A stretch of DNA of 64,000 nucleotides, taken from contig CAMTYB010000001.1 in assembly GCA_947085855.1 (NCBI GenBank), positions 21,788 through 85,787 of the forward strand, read 5' to 3'. The DNA is from an uncultured Candidatus Saccharibacteria bacterium (GTDB lineage: Bacteria > Patescibacteriota > Saccharimonadia > Saccharimonadales > 2-12-FULL-41-12). Every line of letters begins with the position of its first letter. Within the stretch, counting starts at the first letter, position 1. Positions 22,890-48,517 of this stretch are shown piece by piece. Both the position numbers and the translations under genes were made by a program. Below the pieces are notes generated by a model, which was given only the letters and a program-made list of their open reading frames with translations, ran no database searches and was not told the DNA's origin.

Positions 22890-22921
22890 AAACGGGAGCT
22901 GGTGAGAGCTCCCGTTTTGTT
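22890..22921. terminator. bidirectional rho-independent terminator
   Basis: aaacgggagct / agctcccgttt 11-bp stem with 6-nt loop, A-run before and T-run after; sits between convergent genes. Confidence 0.8.
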
Positions 22922-24252
22922 TATAGGCGGTCGAGTTTTGAGTGCTTATAGATGTAGAAGTCTCGAAAGCCGTCAGACAGCATTGACACGTAGTTCTCCT
23001 TAAATAACAGGTCATCCATACGTTTTGCTATAGCCTCATTGGCAATATTTTGAGCAAGTAAGTCGTCTAATTCTGCCCTGATCATGTCAAGAATCTGAGC
23101 CGCACCTTCGCCTCGGTAGACAATGTAACCGAAATTGTCTAGTTGGTATTCTTTACCATCTATAGTTTGAGTTTGAGAGTATCTTACGCCGTGCTCTTTG
23201 ACATGATTATCGTATTCAGCGCCGTACTTAATCTGATCTGGGTCACCATCGCCACCGGGTTCCGGGCAGATGACATCTGTGACATAGTCATTAGGTGTCT
23301 TGCTATTGAGGCGCTTCTGAACGAGCATGGCCACTCTAAACGGTGAAGGTGGTGGCGTACCAGGTTCGCTGCTTGTCTGCTCAATGACTGTAGGCAAATC
23401 GTCGCGATGGGTCATGAGCCCAAACTGTTGCTCAGATATATTATATTTTTTGTAAATGCTTTTCAGTAAGGTAGTGAAGCCAGCAAGATCTCCCTTAAAG
23501 AAGCACGTGTAGATGTAGTTCTTGAAGTCATCTTTAGACCACGGTTGAAATGCACCGGTTTCATCCTCTGACCCTAGTCCAAGTGTTATAGCATCGGTTA
23601 TAACCTGATCAAGCAAACCAAGGTAATCACCATAGGTTTCGTGCACGCCAGGCAAGATGTCTGAAGCCAGCATCTCAGTAGTCGCTTCATTAAACGCCAC
23701 GAAATAATCAGAAGTTAGTTCACCTTCTTTGCCAGCACGTATATCTAATCCAAAGAATCTTCGAAAACCGACATTATTATTCTGCGTAATCGGGGAGTGC
23801 TCAGTAACACGCTCGCTATCATCCCATGAATTGTGAGACAAGAAGTGAACGTATTCGTGAACAAACACCTTCATTTGACTAACAGGATCATCTTTAATTT
23901 TGCCTGTGATGATCGCTATTTTATTTTCTGCCGAAGAGAAATAGCCTGCCCATTTAGGGTATTCCGCTGACGCAGCCATAAAGTGAACCTCTGGGAATGG
24001 CAGATTTTCTCTTGTTAATGCGTTGTCGCTACCAAGAATTTCATCAACTTTAGCGTTAACAAGCTCGACACCCTTTTGTACAATCAACTCTGGTTCAGCC
24101 GCATGCTGCTCCTGACCACGTATTACCTGAAAAACACCCGGTTGAAAATCAGTTCCTGGCTGTACACCGTGGAATTCATTATAGTTTCCCAACAACTTCT
24201 CTGGTTCATGTTGCATTATGTATATTGTATCATACAGATACTGTTTTGTCAA
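22921..24252 (-). CDS. putative zinc metallopeptidase (gluzincin-like), 443 aa, no signal peptide
   Basis: VFVHEYVHFLSH (HExxH) followed ~45 residues later by FNEATTEMLA (NEAxxE-type third ligand). Confidence 0.55.
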   Translation of the reverse strand: MTKQYLYDTIYIMQHEPEKLLGNYNEFHGVQPGTDFQPGVFQVIRGQEQHAAEPELIVQKGVELVNAKVDEILGSDNALTRENLPFPEVHFMAASAEYPKWAGYFSSAENKIAIITGKIKDDPVSQMKVFVHEYVHFLSHNSWDDSERVTEHSPITQNNNVGFRRFFGLDIRAGKEGELTSDYFVAFNEATTEMLASDILPGVHETYGDYLGLLDQVITDAITLGLGSEDETGAFQPWSKDDFKNYIYTCFFKGDLAGFTTLLKSIYKKYNISEQQFGLMTHRDDLPTVIEQTSSEPGTPPPSPFRVAMLVQKRLNSKTPNDYVTDVICPEPGGDGDPDQIKYGAEYDNHVKEHGVRYSQTQTIDGKEYQLDNFGYIVYRGEGAAQILDMIRAELDDLLAQNIANEAIAKRMDDLLFKENYVSMLSDGFRDFYIYKHSKLDRL

Positions 24253-24264
24253 TATAGCATGTAT

Positions 24265-24702
24265 CTATGATGGCTTGGAATGCTGACGTAGATTGCTAAT
24301 GAAAGCTGCAATAGCATGCTCAGCGCTAACAAGGTCCTCATATTCGAGTATTGTGGCTCCGGGACTGCCGCCAATCATAGCTGATAGCGTGCGGCCGCTT
24401 GAGGGTCGAAATAGGCACAATATCGGTTTGCCCATCTTTTCGGCAGCTGAAATTTCGTAGCCAACCCCAAGACTCGGGTTTGTGACTTCTGCGATGACTG
24501 CATCTGACTGCCCAATCCAACGTATGTCATTGCTCCATATGTCACCTGAAGCCTTCTGTGTACCTTCGGTTGTAAGAGTTTTGTCGGCAAAAAATTCTGT
24601 GAGTACTTCGCTATACTTTTTAGCAATAGTAACTATATCTTTGTAGTGTTGCACATCCTGTCTTCCACCTCTGATAGAGCAGGCAAAGTAAATTTGCTTC
24701 AT
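24265..24702 (-). CDS. 2'-deoxynucleoside 5'-phosphate N-hydrolase (DNPH1/Rcl-like, nucleoside 2-deoxyribosyltransferase fold)
   Basis: IYFACSIRGGRQD...VLTEF...AVIAEVTNPSLGVGYEI...KPILCLFRP.SGR.LSAMI.G closely parallels DNPH1; start set to ATG 24702 (track TTG 24807 adds an atypical 35 aa; no clear SD for either). Confidence 0.8.
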   Translation of the reverse strand: MKQIYFACSIRGGRQDVQHYKDIVTIAKKYSEVLTEFFADKTLTTEGTQKASGDIWSNDIRWIGQSDAVIAEVTNPSLGVGYEISAAEKMGKPILCLFRPSSGRTLSAMIGGSPGATILEYEDLVSAEHAIAAFISNLRQHSKPS

Positions 24703-24866
24703 AAACCCATGGTACAGTATCGTTTGTGATGCCGGAATTATTTTGCGGTCCTGGATACCGTTGCCCAACCTTCCTTGACAAGCAAGCTGGTTTTCATTGC
24801 CGGGCAAAATACTCTGGGTAAAGTGCTCTGCCTGACAATGATTTTACAGACAACCAGGCATCGTAA
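24703..24866 (-). promoter_or_regulatory. long structured 5' UTR of the DNPH1-like gene (candidate cis-regulatory RNA)
   Basis: ~165 nt between predicted promoter and ATG with stems GCCUG/CAGGC, UUGCCC/GGGCAA, AACC/GGUU; no known riboswitch consensus recognised. Confidence 0.3.
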
Positions 24867-24896
24867 ATTATACCGTTTTGGTTCTGGTTCTCGCAA
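24867..24896 (-). promoter_or_regulatory. putative promoter of the DNPH1-like gene
   Basis: Minus strand TTGCGA (24896-24891), 18 nt, TATAAT (24872-24867). Confidence 0.5.
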
Positions 24897-25030
24897 TGCT
24901 TCTATCAGCGGTGTAGGATATCCCCGCCTACTCGGCGGCTTTACTCAGTCATGCTCAATGCAAGCACCTGCGCGTGGCTTCGTTCGGCCGAACCTCGGCT
25001 ACGCCGTACCGTTCTCATTTACTGACTCTT

Positions 25031-25062
25031 GACCAAAACAAAAACCGGCTTTGCGGCCGGTT
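25031..25062 (-). terminator. rho-independent terminator after tRNA-Tyr
   Basis: Minus strand aaccggc-cgcaaa-gccggtt followed by tttgtttt. Confidence 0.7.
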
Positions 25063-25069
25063 CTAGTTT

Positions 25070-25155
25070 TGGTGCAGGGTGTAGGATTCGAACCTACGAA
25101 GGCATAAGCCGAGAGATTTACAGTCTCTTGTGTTTGACCGCTTCACTAACCCTGC
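25070..25155 (-). tRNA. tRNA-Tyr (anticodon GTA), long variable arm, encoded CCA
   Basis: Minus strand GCAGGGT TA GTGAAGCGGTCAAACAC A AGAGA CTGTAAA TCTCT CGGCTTATGCCTTC GTAGG TTCGAAT CCTAC ACCCTGC A CCA. Confidence 0.95.
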
Positions 25156-25541
25156 AGATTATGGGTGACCTTAAAGGTGGAGTACTTAGGATGTTCTATG
25201 AACAACTCATTTCTTGCTTGGACAAGCTGCCATGGAATGAGGTACATTGCATCTCTCGCAGTATAAACAAAAAGGATATCAAATGCATCACTACTGTACT
25301 TTTTAGCCTTATACCTCGACATATTGCCGCCTGTGGTGCGAAGACCAACTCGACATGTTTTGTCCTTAGAATAGTAAATACCTGCGTATTTGACTTGAAC
25401 CTTCATGAGCTTACCGTCAAGTTCTACAACGATGTCATAGTCAGTTCTGTCGCCAATAGGCAAGCACACCTCGTATCCTGCGTGAATGAAGTACTTTATT
25501 GCTGAGGCTACAGCAATATCACCCTTCTGTTTTGTTAACAT
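25146..25541 (-). CDS. PD-(D/E)XK endonuclease, group-I-intron-associated / homing-endonuclease-like family
   Basis: KGDIAVASAIKYFIHAGYEVCLPIGDRTDYDIVVELDGKLMKVQVKY matches the family pattern (KGD.AE...GY.V..P.GD...YDL.V...GK...VQVK); ATG 25541 preferred over track GTG 25550; stop TAG 25148-25146 lies inside tRNA-Tyr. Confidence 0.7.
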   Translation of the reverse strand: MLTKQKGDIAVASAIKYFIHAGYEVCLPIGDRTDYDIVVELDGKLMKVQVKYAGIYYSKDKTCRVGLRTTGGNMSRYKAKKYSSDAFDILFVYTARDAMYLIPWQLVQARNELFIEHPKYSTFKVTHNLQG

Positions 25542-25581
25542 ACGACCCACAATAGTAGGTTCACATTAAATATTTGTTAAC

Positions 25582-25656
25582 TGGAGCCATCTCCGGGATT
25601 TGAACCCGGGACCCCATCCTTACCATGGATGTGCTCTACCCCTGAGCTAAGATGGC
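25582..25656 (-). tRNA. tRNA-Thr (anticodon GGT), encoded CCA
   Basis: Minus strand GCCATCT TA GCTC AGGGGTA GAGC A CATCC ATGGTAA GGATG GGGTC CCGGG TTCAAAT CCCGG AGATGGC T CCA. Confidence 0.95.
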
Positions 25657-25723
25657 AAAATAACCAAGTTACTATAGCAAAAAACTAGTGATATTTAAAG
25701 GGTAACTAGCACTTTACATAAAG

Positions 25724-26398
25724 ATGCGCTATGTTATGTCTATTGTGAGTGATAGTCCGGAGTTTCCCAAATTTGATATTCCCAGCCTATTGAGTCCAGA
25801 CGGATATCGTTTAGCTGACCATGAGCGCTTTCTTCGAGTTTGTGATATGCCGGACAGAAGTGTCTTTTACGTGCACTGCACAAGCGTTGTTGCTAACGGA
25901 GAAGGTGTTGTCTTGTTAGATAAAGAGGCTAGTGTATTCGCGGAGGCTGATGTTCGCGAGGAGATACTGTTTGAAGATGATGAAAATGCCGCATTTTCTC
26001 GAGTTCTCAAAGTCGAGGGACAATATGTGGTCGATGAGTCATTTGAGAACTTCGAAACACATGAGGAAGTGAAGGACCGCTTTTATTTACCGGACTATCT
26101 TGAAGAACCTACGCTTCACGATGCAATAGCTAACTCGGATAGGTTTGTGCCGGTACTTGGTTGGGCAGGCAATGAATGTCAGCTTGAAAAAGTACTCGAT
26201 GATCTGGCAGATGAATATAACTGGCGCATACATACTCCAAATGTACTGTATCTCATTCATGTTGAGCGTGACGAAGATGATGATACCGACGAGAATGATG
26301 ATGGTTTCGACGATCCAGACGAACCAGATGATAGTGGCCCCGATGGTGACTATGCACCGCTTGGTTCTGAAGATGATGCTGATGATGCTACAGATTAG
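25724..26398 (+). CDS. highly acidic hypothetical protein with poly-D/E C-terminal tail
   Basis: 224 aa; last ~50 residues RDEDDDTDENDDGFDDPDEPDDSGPDGDYAPLGSEDDADDATD; no family recognised. Confidence 0.55.
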   Translation: MRYVMSIVSDSPEFPKFDIPSLLSPDGYRLADHERFLRVCDMPDRSVFYVHCTSVVANGEGVVLLDKEASVFAEADVREEILFEDDENAAFSRVLKVEGQYVVDESFENFETHEEVKDRFYLPDYLEEPTLHDAIANSDRFVPVLGWAGNECQLEKVLDDLADEYNWRIHTPNVLYLIHVERDEDDDTDENDDGFDDPDEPDDSGPDGDYAPLGSEDDADDATD

Positions 26399-26408
26399 AT
26401 AACTCTTG

Positions 26409-26417
26409 TGATATAAT
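26409..26417 (+). promoter_or_regulatory. extended -10 promoter element upstream of tRNA-Thr(TGT)
   Basis: TGaTATAAT at 26409-26417, 43 nt before the tRNA; no good -35. Confidence 0.4.
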
Positions 26418-26459
26418 CTGTTCGTACTCTGAGTTTCGATAACTCAATTGGGCAGCCAC

Positions 26460-26536
26460 GCCACCTTAGCTCAGTTGGTTAGAGCATCGGTTTTGTAAAC
26501 CGAGGGTCGTCGGTTCGAATCCGACAGGTGGCTCCA
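26460..26536 (+). tRNA. tRNA-Thr (anticodon TGT), encoded CCA
   Basis: GCCACCT TA GCTC AGTTGGTTA GAGC A TCGGT TTTGTAA ACCGA GGGTC GTCGG TTCGAAT CCGAC AGGTGGC T CCA. Confidence 0.95.
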
Positions 26537-26555
26537 TTTTAACGTGATTGATATA

Positions 26556-26585
26556 TTTACAGTAATCAGCAAAGTGTGTTATAAT
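26556..26585 (+). promoter_or_regulatory. putative promoter of rpmG
   Basis: TTTACA (26556-26561), 18 nt, TATAAT (26580-26585) preceded by TGTG. Confidence 0.5.
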
Positions 26586-26593
26586 AAATAGAT

Positions 26594-26800
26594 ATGGCAA
26601 AGAAGACTGACAAGCGAAAATTGGTAGGATTGGTATGTGAAGAAACGGGTCACCGTACGTACTATACCGTTAAAAATACCCAAAATACCCCAGACAAATT
26701 ACAGCTTCGCAAGTACAACCCAACTGTTCGACGTCACACGCTTTATGTTGAAACCAAGAAAAATCTTGGCCGCAACGAAGTTAAGCCGCGCAAGAAATAG
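26594..26800 (+). CDS. rpmG: 50S ribosomal protein L33 (non-zinc form, C-terminal extension)
   Basis: ...YYTVKNTQNTPDKLQLRKYNPTVRRHTLYVETKK is L33; only one Cys. Confidence 0.88.
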   Translation: MAKKTDKRKLVGLVCEETGHRTYYTVKNTQNTPDKLQLRKYNPTVRRHTLYVETKKNLGRNEVKPRKK

Positions 26801-26819
26801 TTAATCTCAAGTAAAAATG

Positions 26820-26845
26820 AAAACGAGCCTCATGGGCTCGTTTTT
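26820..26845 (+). terminator. rho-independent terminator after rpmG
   Basis: aaacgagcc / ggctcgttt stem, 5-nt loop, T-run. Confidence 0.8.
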
Positions 26846-26866
26846 AATGCATGAAAAAGCACGAAA

Positions 26867-27373
26867 CTACATGCCAGCGTCAGCCGGTAGTTCAGCGAGC
26901 AGTAGCATGTGCGGTTGCGGACCAATGCCACCTATACTCGCAAATCTGCCCAATTCGATTGTAGTGTCGAGATTTATTGAGTCGCAGGCGAGCACATTCC
27001 CCTCCAGGCGATGAATTTCTTCGTAGATCTGGTTTACTTCATGCGAAAACTGATCAAGTGGCTTCTCATCGAGCTCCATATCGCCAAAGCCGTACGGAGA
27101 AACGACATGCGCCCTGCAGATAGTAGGCTTCGGCGAGGGGTTATCAAACTGTGCAACGTATAATGCGGTGTCAACGAGGCCAAGATTAGGGTCCGCATTG
27201 GCCGGGTAGGCCGCCTGGAGTCTAACGATACTTTGGGTAACAATTTTGCCACCCCGTGATGCTATATCTTCAAAGTACCGATTTGCTATCGATTCAAATT
27301 CTTCACCTGCTAGACAGACTGTCCGTGGATCGCCTTCTCTATAGGATGAGATCAACGTGGTCTCAAAGGCCAT
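26867..27373 (-). CDS. hypothetical protein, 168 aa
   Basis: ORF with AAGGAG RBS on minus strand; no motif recognised. Confidence 0.55.
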   Translation of the reverse strand: MAFETTLISSYREGDPRTVCLAGEEFESIANRYFEDIASRGGKIVTQSIVRLQAAYPANADPNLGLVDTALYVAQFDNPSPKPTICRAHVVSPYGFGDMELDEKPLDQFSHEVNQIYEEIHRLEGNVLACDSINLDTTIELGRFASIGGIGPQPHMLLLAELPADAGM

Positions 27374-27461
27374 ACTTAAACCATAGCTCCTTGAGTGATG
27401 CGTATGCCAGTTGCCGTAACACCTATGCTGCTCATATTAAATAGATACTATACATACTCTT

Positions 27462-28625
27462 TTACACAATCACAACTGAGGGTTTAGGCAGTGAGTTAAA
27501 CTCGGTAGCTAAGGCATATGAATAAGCGCCGATGTTGGGCACTACAATCAAATCGTCGCGCTCCATTTTGGGTAGGTAGACTTTTTGGTCGACGATATCA
27601 ATACTGTCACAGGTGGGACCACCGACAATATATCTTGAACTGGGCTTGACTCCATCAAGCTCCTGAACACCAAACAGCTCATACGTCATGTGGCCAGCTA
27701 TCATATCCGAAAAACTACCATAGACACCATCATTTATGAAAAGCCAGTTCTCTGAGCCGCGCTTAGATTTTGAAACTACACTTGTGAGCAACGTAACACA
27801 AGGGTTAACAAGATAGCGGCCAGGTTCACTGATTATAGTTACACCCGGGAAATCTGTGTCTAAGATATCGTTAATTGCATCAGCAAAATCATGGATACCA
27901 AGCACATTTGCAACATACGGGGCAGGGAAGCCACCGCCAATATCTAATAGGGAGAATTCAACTGAGCGCTCAGCTTTTACCTTGGCGAAAAATTCAGCTG
28001 TTTTATGCAACGCTTCCACATACGGGACAACGCTTTCCGTTTGACTGCCAACATGAAAGCTAACTCCACTAACTGTGTAGCCCTCGTCTAAAAGCCGGTA
28101 CACGGCTTTTACTGCTTCATTTGGCTCAAGGCCAAACTTATACGACAAATCGATTGCAGCGTACTTATTAGGAAAGCTCAGTCTAAACAGTAGATTTATA
28201 TCCTTTTTATATGGTTCTAGAATAGGAATTTCGGACACGTTATCGAGCACGAATGTACGAATACCATAGTCATAGGCGGCCTTCATGTCCTGTGCACGCT
28301 TGTGCGGGTGCGTGTGAATTAATAGTTCCGGTGGATACTGTATGGCTCGTAACATCTCGATTTCGCCGGTAGTGGCTACGTCTAGGCGCGCAGAAATAGA
28401 TTTATATATCTGCAGCAACTCGGGGGCGGGGCACGATTTAACTGCAAAGTGAGGAGTAACTCGGGGCATTAAGGTCTCTAACCCACGGTATCTTTCGATA
28501 ACGAGAGAACTGTTTATGATCTGCAGTGGAGTCCCATGCTTTTGAGCTAAGCTACGCAAAGAATCACGTGTAAAAGTGTTCTGTAACAGATGTAATTGTT
28601 CTTTATGAAACTTTGACGTAACCAT
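27462..28625 (-). CDS. PLP-dependent group IV decarboxylase (ornithine/lysine/DAP decarboxylase family, ODC-like)
   Basis: PHFAVKSCP (PLP-Lys), DIGGGFPAPY, SEPGRYLV, GGPTCDSIDIV. Confidence 0.82.
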   Translation of the reverse strand: MVTSKFHKEQLHLLQNTFTRDSLRSLAQKHGTPLQIINSSLVIERYRGLETLMPRVTPHFAVKSCPAPELLQIYKSISARLDVATTGEIEMLRAIQYPPELLIHTHPHKRAQDMKAAYDYGIRTFVLDNVSEIPILEPYKKDINLLFRLSFPNKYAAIDLSYKFGLEPNEAVKAVYRLLDEGYTVSGVSFHVGSQTESVVPYVEALHKTAEFFAKVKAERSVEFSLLDIGGGFPAPYVANVLGIHDFADAINDILDTDFPGVTIISEPGRYLVNPCVTLLTSVVSKSKRGSENWLFINDGVYGSFSDMIAGHMTYELFGVQELDGVKPSSRYIVGGPTCDSIDIVDQKVYLPKMERDDLIVVPNIGAYSYALATEFNSLPKPSVVIV

Positions 28626-37339: not shown

Positions 37340-37414
37340 TGGCAGGGGCACGTGGAATCGAACCACGATCTAAGGTTTTGGAGACCTTCATACTAGCCGT
37401 TGTACTATGCCCCT
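37340..37414 (-). tRNA. tRNA-Trp (anticodon CCA), encoded CCA end
   Basis: Minus strand AGGGGCA TA GTAC AACGGCTA GTAT G AAGGT CTCCAAA ACCTT AGAT CGTGG TTCGATT CCACG TGCCCCT G CCA. Confidence 0.93.
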
Positions 37415-48299: not shown

Positions 48300-48445
48300 G
48301 GTAATTTGCTAAAATAACACTAGTTACCGAAGACAGTAGCGGCCAAGAACATCGTTCGAAGCTTAAGAAGGCTACCGAGGCAATACATGACAACTCGTTT
48401 GCATAGTATGTTTTTCGTCTTTGGTTAACTACCAAAGATTTTTTT
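48300..48445 (+). promoter_or_regulatory. candidate L10-leader-type attenuator upstream of rplJ
   Basis: Stems ggtaa/ttacc, gtagc/gctac, then terminator tctttggt-taact-accaaaga-T7 (48418-48445) 72 nt before rplJ ATG. Confidence 0.35.
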
Positions 48446-48517
48446 ATGTAATAAATAAATGGTCGATACATTCTTTGGTATTAATCGAATCAAAAATCTA
48501 ACCATAAAGGTAGATAC

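Follow-up and report, generated by a model that had tools for sequence, protein, structure and literature searches.

A free-standing, intron-less I-Ssp6803I-like endonuclease gene at the 5' end of tRNA-Tyr in a Saccharibacteria genome

Introduction

The founding PD-(D/E)XK homing endonuclease is I-Ssp6803I, a tetramer encoded in a tRNA-fMet intron, with proven homing activity and a pseudo-palindromic target of 23 bp (PMC3384342). Its close homologues are, according to a 2012 review, "generally encoded in cyanobacteria" (PMC3384342). A 2026 survey of tRNA introns lists the corresponding family, PF11645, solely inside introns, those of tRNA-fMet in Cyanobacteriota and those of tRNA-Arg(UCU) in Bacteroidota and Campylobacterota; in that survey the tRNA introns of Patescibacteria carry HNH rather than PF11645 endonucleases, and free-standing copies are unmentioned (PMC13011429). 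A free-standing way of life among tRNA genes is documented for a different enzyme, SegB of phage T4, a GIY-YIG homing endonuclease whose gene lies among clustered tRNA genes and whose target contains a tRNA motif (PMC2330249). Its 27-bp recognition site includes the TpsiC stem-loop, and the enzyme drives the inheritance of both itself and the flanking tRNA genes (PMC2330249). The subject here is a PF11645 gene found between two tRNA genes of an uncultured Candidatus Saccharibacteria bacterium (GenBank assembly GCA_947085855.1, contig CAMTYB010000001.1, positions 21,788 to 85,787 of the forward strand); these 64,000 nucleotides are called the window, and coordinates refer to it.

The data point to a homing endonuclease gene from the I-Ssp6803I/PF11645 family that is free-standing, has no intron and was inserted at the 5' junction of tRNA-Tyr in a tRNA-Thr/tRNA-Tyr spacer that otherwise measures 1–50 nt. 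This reading is given a probability of about three in four.

Results

The gene lies on the minus strand between two intact tRNA genes with encoded CCA ends: tRNA-Thr(GGU) at 25582–25656 (ARAGORN; Rfam RF00005, 65.2 bits) and tRNA-Tyr(GUA) at 25070–25155 (ARAGORN; Rfam, 61.4 bits), the latter with a perfect 7-bp acceptor stem. The open reading frame (ORF) appears in a program-made list at 25146–25550 (minus strand), with 134 aa counted from a GTG at 25550. An alignment of the window ORF with 31 homologues points to the ATG at 25541 as the conserved start, which gives a gene at 25146–25541 and a protein of 131 aa. A first-pass annotation of the DNA had given the same order and positions, and ARAGORN, Rfam and the ORF list bear it out. 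The gene is separated from tRNA-Thr by 40 nt and from tRNA-Tyr by 0 nt. Its 3' end reads ...CAT AAT CTG CAG GGT TAG, and tRNA-Tyr begins at the G of CTG; in the sequence itself the two genes share 10 nt (25146–25155, minus strand), with the TAG stop codon (25148–25146) forming tRNA-Tyr positions 8–10. The annotation had put the last three sense codons and the stop inside the tRNA. It was right about the stop, and one codon too generous with the rest: two complete sense codons (CAG and GGT) and one base of CTG lie within tRNA-Tyr.

The family assignment, which the first-pass annotation had proposed, is upheld by three routes: profile search, sequence search of the Protein Data Bank (PDB) and fold search. 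The window protein matches PF11645 (PDDEXK_5) with 79.9 bits against a curated gathering cutoff of 26.1 bits, over profile positions 1–108 of 138, and the same domain is present in 90 of 90 homologues. The sole significant PDB sequence match is 2OST, the structure of I-Ssp6803I (E=1.4e-10). An AlphaFold2 model (pLDDT 85.8, pTM 0.81) returns the four 2OST chains as Foldseek ranks 1–4, with E=4.6e-10, a TM-score of 0.75 and 28% identity in the alignment; the matches at ranks 5–50, among them the SPARDA nuclease domain, Hjc resolvases and restriction enzymes, have E-values of 3e-3 or weaker. Seven residues (P31, D34, D39, V51, Q52, V53 and K54, in the numbering of the 134-aa ORF) are invariant in 32 sequences, and D39, Q52 and K54 align with the D...Q-V-K motif of I-Ssp6803I. 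From this alignment and the general pattern of the motif, these three are putative catalytic residues. Residues 132–134, encoded by the overlap with the tRNA, are modelled with pLDDT below 50, which fits an incidental C-terminal tail. PADLOC gives a single match, to a model named 'HEase, homing endonuclease'; in PHROGs the protein falls in phrog_5018, of 'unknown function', and an NCBIfam search with the window protein gave no meaningful match. An NCBI protein (P0001) 99% identical to the window ORF has been called from an internal start, at 107 aa.

The position of the gene relative to tRNA-Tyr is repeated in other genomes. A scan of a genome collection yielded 68 loci (L001–L068), nearly all in metagenome-assembled genomes (MAGs) of Patescibacteria labelled as Saccharibacteria, Paceibacterota/Parcubacteria, Yonath-, Berkel-, Roizman-, Davies- and Liptonbacteria or Minisyncoccia. 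When the ORF end is scored as the first in-frame stop and the gap as the distance from there to tRNA-Tyr, 55 full-length copies lie directly 5' of a tRNA-Tyr(GUA) on the same strand, with gaps of -38 to +30 nt: -38 (one copy), -32 (three), -31 (one), -10 (eight), -6 (four), +1 to +18 (36) and +28 or +30 (two). Recurrence across dozens of independent genomes puts the arrangement far beyond chance. It holds whatever the acceptor stem of the tRNA (GCAGGGT, GCGTCGG, GCGCAGG, GCTGGGG or CCAGAGG). One copy has a gap of +4 (L019), and three others also adjoin a tRNA-Tyr (L018, L025 and L059). A tRNA-Thr lies upstream in only about half of the loci, so the constant partner is the 5' end of tRNA-Tyr and not the Thr-Tyr pair; the proposal that the gene is lodged in a Thr-Tyr spacer is to be refined accordingly.

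The stop codon falls inside tRNA-Tyr in 17 of the 55 full-length copies, and the window's own overlap of 10 nt recurs in eight other genomes. Where the short gap offers no stop, the frame enters the tRNA and ends at whichever stop that frame provides. With a gap of -10 this is T8-A9-G10, and with a gap of -6 it is a TAG that GCGTAG-type tRNAs have at positions 4–6; in the remaining copies the stop lies some 30–38 nt in. The overlap in the window thus looks like a recurring by-product of a near-zero gap and not like a unique design.

Not every copy conforms. In two loci (L003 and L006) the gene sits between a divergent tRNA-Thr(UGU) and a tRNA-Thr(GGU), 47–54 nt 5' of the latter, and in two more (L009 and L052) tRNA-Tyr is not directly downstream. 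No downstream tRNA was found in L013, L047 and L053, where contig ends were not checked. Distant homologues (26–32% identity) in two MAGs of Acidobacteriota/Pyrinomonadaceae (L067 and L068) lie 6–29 nt 5' of a tRNA-Pro(CGG), so that among cellular genomes the habit of sitting at tRNA junctions may reach past Patescibacteria and involve further tRNAs.

The protein could in principle be another kind of stand-alone nuclease, with a role in defence or restriction or in the resolution of Holliday junctions, which landed near tRNA genes as hot spots of integration. The PD-(D/E)XK fold is common to Hjc, the SPARDA nuclease domain and restriction enzymes, PADLOC does hold a model that the protein matches, and some phage records label homologues 'Holliday junction resolvase'. 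However, the PADLOC model is itself named for homing endonucleases, and 2OST is far ahead of every other fold (E of about 1e-10, with all others at 3e-3 or weaker). Around the gene lie tRNAs, a nucleoside deoxyribosyltransferase-like gene and ORFs that have no annotation, with no defence partner genes among them; what was inserted is a lone gene of 418 nt with no partner gene, integrase or methyltransferase alongside, and its constancy at the tRNA 5' end, to the nucleotide, is unlike the integration of islands. Such an origin is very unlikely.

If the gene is an insertion, empty counterparts of the site should be found, and these are the rule. Metagenome contigs were scanned with the 5' half of a Saccharibacteria-type tRNA-Tyr, a pattern free of endonuclease sequence, and 120 loci were returned, of which three are occupied (about 3%), about 107 empty and 10 not judgeable. 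The empty class comprises 99 loci with at least 450 nt upstream and no match, and 8 in which tRNA-Thr is too close to leave room for the gene. At most empty sites a tRNA-Thr (UGU or GGU) stands 1–50 nt 5' of tRNA-Tyr, in agreement with the proposed conservation of Thr-Tyr as a tight pair. The occupied loci are L076, L090, which is cut by the contig end, and L082, a pseudogene whose matches are spread over three reading frames. A six-frame hmmsearch of 30 longer 'empty' spacers (90–335 nt) found no remnants beyond the occupied L076 and L082. The comparison of Thr-Tyr spacers that the first-pass annotation had proposed thus reveals both states, and with them site-specific presence or absence.

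The closest empty site, L176, has a tRNA-Thr(GGU) 93% and a tRNA-Tyr 95% identical to those of the window, joined as GGCTCCA-gttaacat-GCAGGGTTAGTG. Its spacer, gttaacat, corresponds to gttaaca[418 nt]t in the window, and the insertion would therefore fill essentially the whole spacer: a segment of about 418 nt at approximately 25157–25574 (minus strand), consisting of a promoter-like site and the ORF, with suggestive boundaries that rest on a 7-nt match. The GTTAACA of L176 is also the -35-like box that directly follows tRNA-Thr in the window (25575–25581) and in several occupied loci; it could have been left behind by a cassette now lost, belong to the target site or be a coincidence. Another locus devoid of the endonuclease gene, L086, has a tRNA-Tyr identical to the window's at 86 of 86 positions, 6 nt past tRNA-Thr. 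The window tRNA-Tyr therefore bears no protective substitution, and if the enzyme is active, we infer that its recognition site spans the point of insertion.

The PF11645 family is known from tRNA introns (tRNA-fMet and tRNA-Arg UCU), and Patescibacteria are rich in tRNA group I introns (PMC13011429). The gene might accordingly be the relic of an intron-encoded endonuclease that once lay in a group I intron of a tRNA, the ribozyme having since decayed or diverged too far to be recognised. Against this, both flanking tRNAs are complete and uninterrupted. Rfam finds no match to a group I intron family in the whole window at the gathering threshold, and only tRNAs and noise, with no group I intron, at E<=10 within 23500–27500. 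The roughly 40 nt upstream and 0 nt downstream of the ORF leave no room for a ribozyme core, and the empty sites have a simple short spacer. For the window locus the idea is effectively refuted and has hardly any probability left, and the first-pass annotation was correct in seeing no intron.

Homologues of the window protein are also widespread in viruses, and there, too, they keep company with tRNAs. Ten IMG/VR homologues were returned (L189–L198), and all eight that were scanned lie inside phage tRNA arrays. A further set of homologues, at 27–38% identity, occurs in 74 GenBank phage records, and a same-strand tRNA lies at most 200 nt away in 19 of 21 inspected viral records. The host genera of these phages include Escherichia, Vibrio, Bacillus, Acinetobacter, Pseudomonas, Klebsiella, Mycobacterium, Streptomyces, Arthrobacter and Pectobacterium, and in two haloarchaeal viruses the gene likewise adjoins a tRNA. 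Gaps to the next tRNA are often very short: 0 nt in Vibrio phage Pylo (Pro), +1 in Acinetobacter phage CP14 (Tyr) and in Escherichia phage UPEC06 (Tyr, unannotated), +2 in the T5-like phage SelmaRatti (Ser), about +3 from the end of the match in Klebsiella phage K54lambda1.1.1 (Tyr, unannotated), +11 in Mycobacterium phage Kahlid (Lys) and +14 in Bacillus phage BCP12 (Ser). Overlaps are found in Pseudomonas phage KoPa-4 (-10, Leu, as annotated) and Pectobacterium phage My1 (-7, Ile), and with tRNA-Ser in Arthrobacter phage Talia1610 and Streptomyces phage Braelyn. tRNA-Tyr recurs as the next tRNA in CP14, UPEC06, K54lambda1.1.1 and L190. Annotation is uneven here: tRNAs are unannotated in UPEC06 and Braelyn (L215), and in K54lambda1.1.1 a coding sequence has been called straight across four tRNAs.

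Flanks like those of the SelmaRatti locus are found in 451 T5-like phage records, of which SelmaRatti alone carries the gene. At the same tRNA-Ser junction Salmonella phage S124 has a different annotated homing endonuclease, and the T5-like junction may be a landing site shared by unrelated endonuclease genes. In two further phages the match overlaps a coding sequence annotated as a fragment of DNA polymerase ('part II' in Pseudomonas phage phiIBB-PAA2, 'part III' in BUCT640), and a split DNA polymerase gene is a classic habitat of mobile elements.

Most copies carry a palindromic promoter motif of their own. The motif CAG-N9-CTG occurs 5' of the ORF in 38 of 58 loci, against a background of 3.6%; its spacing is invariably 9, it usually ends 13–14 nt before the ATG, and it is often preceded by TTxACA at 17 nt. 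The consensus, AaCAGcattATACTCTGTTATAAT or AaCAG-N9-CTGTTATAAT, is an inverted repeat that overlaps an extended -10 box, and the 6–7 nt between the -10 hexamer and the ATG predict, from the sequence, a leaderless mRNA. A weight-matrix scan of 1.33 Mb (all loci and the window, both strands) produced 60 matches, every one directly 5' of a PF11645 gene, including L076 and L082, the two occupied metagenome loci that reach the gene start; there was no match in any empty locus nor in the window. Gene and motif thus move together, in bacteria as in phages. In viral loci L190–L196 (about 2953–2979) it takes the form of a perfect 9-1-9 palindrome, AACAGAGTA-a-TACTCTGTT. The GIY-YIG endonuclease I-TevI represses its own synthesis by binding an operator that overlaps its promoter. 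By analogy, the simplest reading of the palindrome is as a putative operator bound by the endonuclease itself.

The window belongs to the minority without the palindrome. Its promoter-like site P2 (25552–25580, minus strand), in the spacer between tRNA-Thr and the ORF, matches the promoter consensus as TTAACA-17-TACTAT, ends 10 nt before the ATG and is a weak counterpart of the cassette promoter of its relatives, devoid of ACAG...CTGT. The window copy and several others with no palindrome (L021, L026, L028, L034, L041 and L044) have a -10-like box 5' of the ATG, mostly with a TTxACA -35 element. In seven loci (L012, L015, L035, L036, L037, L046 and L064) a terminator-like hairpin with a T-run stands just 5' of the cassette promoter, 60–70 nt before the ORF; because of this terminator the cassette promoter may there be the sole promoter of a single-copy tRNA-Tyr, in which case the element would be hard to lose.

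The palindrome was also considered as a lead to the target site. With a symmetrised matrix the best matches fell on the anticodon arm of tRNA-Tyr in 74 of 95 empty loci. They were dismissed: they lie at about the 95th percentile of random sequence (score of about 6, against about 21 for real sites), their constant position reflects tRNA homology, and the window's own tRNA has no match.

Several features of sequence evolution suggest that the gene comes and goes. Six of the 68 genome copies are degraded, four by premature stops (L022, L048, L065 and L066) and two by frameshifts (L063 and L064), and the metagenome copy L082 brings the total to seven. The sampled hosts are distant from the window genome, with ribosomal protein L33 65–85% and a syntenic TPR neighbour 50–70% identical; given hosts this distant, endonuclease identities of 52–64% to the window are unremarkable alone. 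When a syntenic neighbour protein serves as host proxy in 25 loci, endonuclease and host identities are weakly correlated (Spearman 0.41, Mantel p=0.001) and have similar means (0.60 and 0.63). Certain host pairs at 82–88% nevertheless have endonucleases at only 53–65% (L001/L026, L026/L031 and L003/L043), a pattern consistent with diverged lineages having invaded the specific site, or replaced copies there, more than once. The identity of tRNA-Tyr was tried as host proxy and dropped, because hosts with identical tRNAs can have a protein identity of only about 69%; a pair with identical tRNA and 55% identical endonucleases was accordingly weak evidence and is superseded by the syntenic neighbour protein. 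The selfish, mobile behaviour proposed in the first-pass annotation agrees with the occupancy of about 3%, the pseudogenes, the divergence decoupled from the host and the presence or absence among near-identical phages.

A number of points weigh against reading the gene as a mobile homing endonuclease. Its identities match the range of host housekeeping proteins, which long vertical residence combined with frequent loss could still explain. No pair among the 25 loci has endonucleases much closer than their hosts, so there is no direct signature of recent transfer across lineages. The 7-nt match that sets the boundaries against L176 may be a coincidence. Cleavage, target site and homing are inferences for the window protein as for all free-standing members of the family. 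Finally, intact copies have dN/dS ratios of 0.03–0.12 where these are calculable, synonymous sites being saturated at 85–93% protein identity; selection is thus strongly purifying and the protein therefore functional. Such constraint is stronger than expected of a purely selfish gene, and it could mean a role that benefits the host.

This last point leads to a rival in which the gene has been domesticated and the protein is kept for a cellular role, for example as a DNA-binding regulator of the promoter that drives a single-copy tRNA-Tyr. Besides the low dN/dS (0.03–0.12), the position is conserved over deep lineages of Patescibacteria, a cassette-specific palindrome overlaps the promoter directly 5' of the ORF and tRNA-Tyr, and in several loci (e.g. 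L015, L035 and L036) the hairpin ahead of the cassette possibly leaves it as the only promoter of tRNA-Tyr. However, a domesticated gene sits poorly with carriage by only about 3% of sampled Saccharibacteria-type tRNA-Tyr loci, with the occurrence of pseudogenes and with divergence decoupled from the host. The same gene and motif are found in phage tRNA arrays, with one of 451 T5-like phages occupied, and the window copy has no palindrome. Domestication is judged unlikely, and an inserted homing endonuclease gene is the preferred reading.

In the window, the whole unit looks like P1, tRNA-Thr, P2, ORF, tRNA-Tyr and terminator, in that order. P1 is a promoter-like site 5' of tRNA-Thr (25671–25699, minus strand; TTTAAA-17-TATAGT, with TG before the -10 hexamer), whose presumed function derives from its consensus match alone. 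An intrinsic-terminator-like hairpin with a T-run begins 5 nt past tRNA-Tyr (25041–25064, minus strand; 9-bp stem with 5 G-C pairs, tail TGTTTTGG). The unit is flanked by two ORFs with no Pfam match for either: 25724–26398 (plus strand), of 224 aa, with a strongly acidic, Asp/Glu-rich C-terminus, and 22921–24252 (minus strand), of 443 aa, with an HExxH-like motif, HEYVH. At 26460–26800 (plus strand) a tRNA-Thr(UGU) precedes an L33-like ORF (by eye, rpmG), a tRNA-Trp lies at 37340–37414 (minus strand) and an L10 leader at 48309–48453 (plus strand; Rfam, 64.4 bits). The housekeeping context confirms that the window is bacterial chromosome and not phage.

Discussion

An endonuclease gene of this kind would spread as follows: (i) the enzyme would cut related genomes where the Thr-Tyr or tRNA-Tyr 5' junction is empty, (ii) its recognition site would span the point of insertion, the tRNA itself bearing no protective change, and (iii) recombinational repair from an occupied copy would carry the gene in. 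Once in place, the gene would be part of the tRNA operon and share a transcript with tRNA-Tyr that starts at P1 and/or P2, and cleavage by RNase P at position +1 of tRNA-Tyr would make the 3' end of the mRNA. With a gap of essentially zero, the stop would fall inside the tRNA, where U8-A9-G10 reads as TAG in frame. Processed transcripts of the window gene would then have no stop codon, and expression might, speculatively, be lowered.

That expression of the gene and maturation of the tRNA should interfere with each other, as the first-pass annotation had proposed, is logically sound and reasonable for the window, and is complicated by the promoter-like site between tRNA-Thr and the ORF. About two thirds of the full-length copies (36+2 of 55) keep their own stop 1–30 nt 5' of the tRNA, and interference is therefore not a conserved requirement of the family.

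A bolder synthesis, which we regard as doubtful, takes these elements together. A lineage of PF11645 would have specialised on tRNA 5' junctions as a minimal cassette: a palindromic self-operator over an extended -10 promoter and a leaderless ORF that has no 3' untranslated region, the 3' end of the mRNA being made by RNase P. About one third of the copies, that of the window among them, would have their stop only on the unprocessed precursor and would yield non-stop mRNA, so that the dosage of the nuclease would depend on the activity of RNase P and tmRNA. The cassette would, in many hosts, double as the promoter of a single-copy, essential tRNA-Tyr, and so be hard to lose.

Seen alone, the window offers one well-explained selfish gene, which is less dramatic. 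The wider interest is in the family. Nearly all that is known of PD-(D/E)XK homing endonucleases comes from I-Ssp6803I. The present data point to a much wider, intron-independent life, with genes set against tRNA 5' ends both in Patescibacteria, whose genomes are reduced, and in tRNA arrays carried by phages and archaeal viruses. These genes are a source of very small natural nucleases (about 125 aa) that are putatively site-specific, their targets probably being tRNA-gene junctions. They also provide a natural system in which the termination of translation on an mRNA and the 5' maturation of a tRNA share nucleotides. For annotation there is a practical lesson: such genes are often called from an incorrect start codon, fused with tRNAs, or entered as "hypothetical" or "Holliday junction resolvase".

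Searches of the open-access literature yielded no account of PF11645 genes that stand free and adjoin the 5' end of a tRNA. Family and lifestyle are each known; their combination, and the habitat, appear to be undescribed. With I-Ssp6803I (2OST) the window protein shares the PF11645 domain, the fold (TM 0.75), the D...QxK motif, a small size (131 aa against about 150) and the tie to a tRNA gene. The difference lies in the setting: the Synechocystis gene lies within a self-splicing group I intron that interrupts the anticodon loop of tRNA-fMet, whereas that of the window is intron-less and stands 5' of an intact tRNA-Tyr. The other intron-encoded PF11645 enzymes (PMC13011429) likewise share family and tRNA-gene habitat, and differ by sitting inside group I introns. 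I-TevI is a possible analogue for the palindrome that overlaps the -10 box in most relatives, although it is a GIY-YIG enzyme and the window copy has no palindrome. SegB belongs to a catalytic family unrelated to PD-(D/E)XK, is encoded by a phage and not by a bacterial chromosome, and has no reported constant, zero-gap position at a tRNA 5' end; as a free-standing endonuclease gene between tRNA genes, it is nevertheless the best functional analogue of the window gene.

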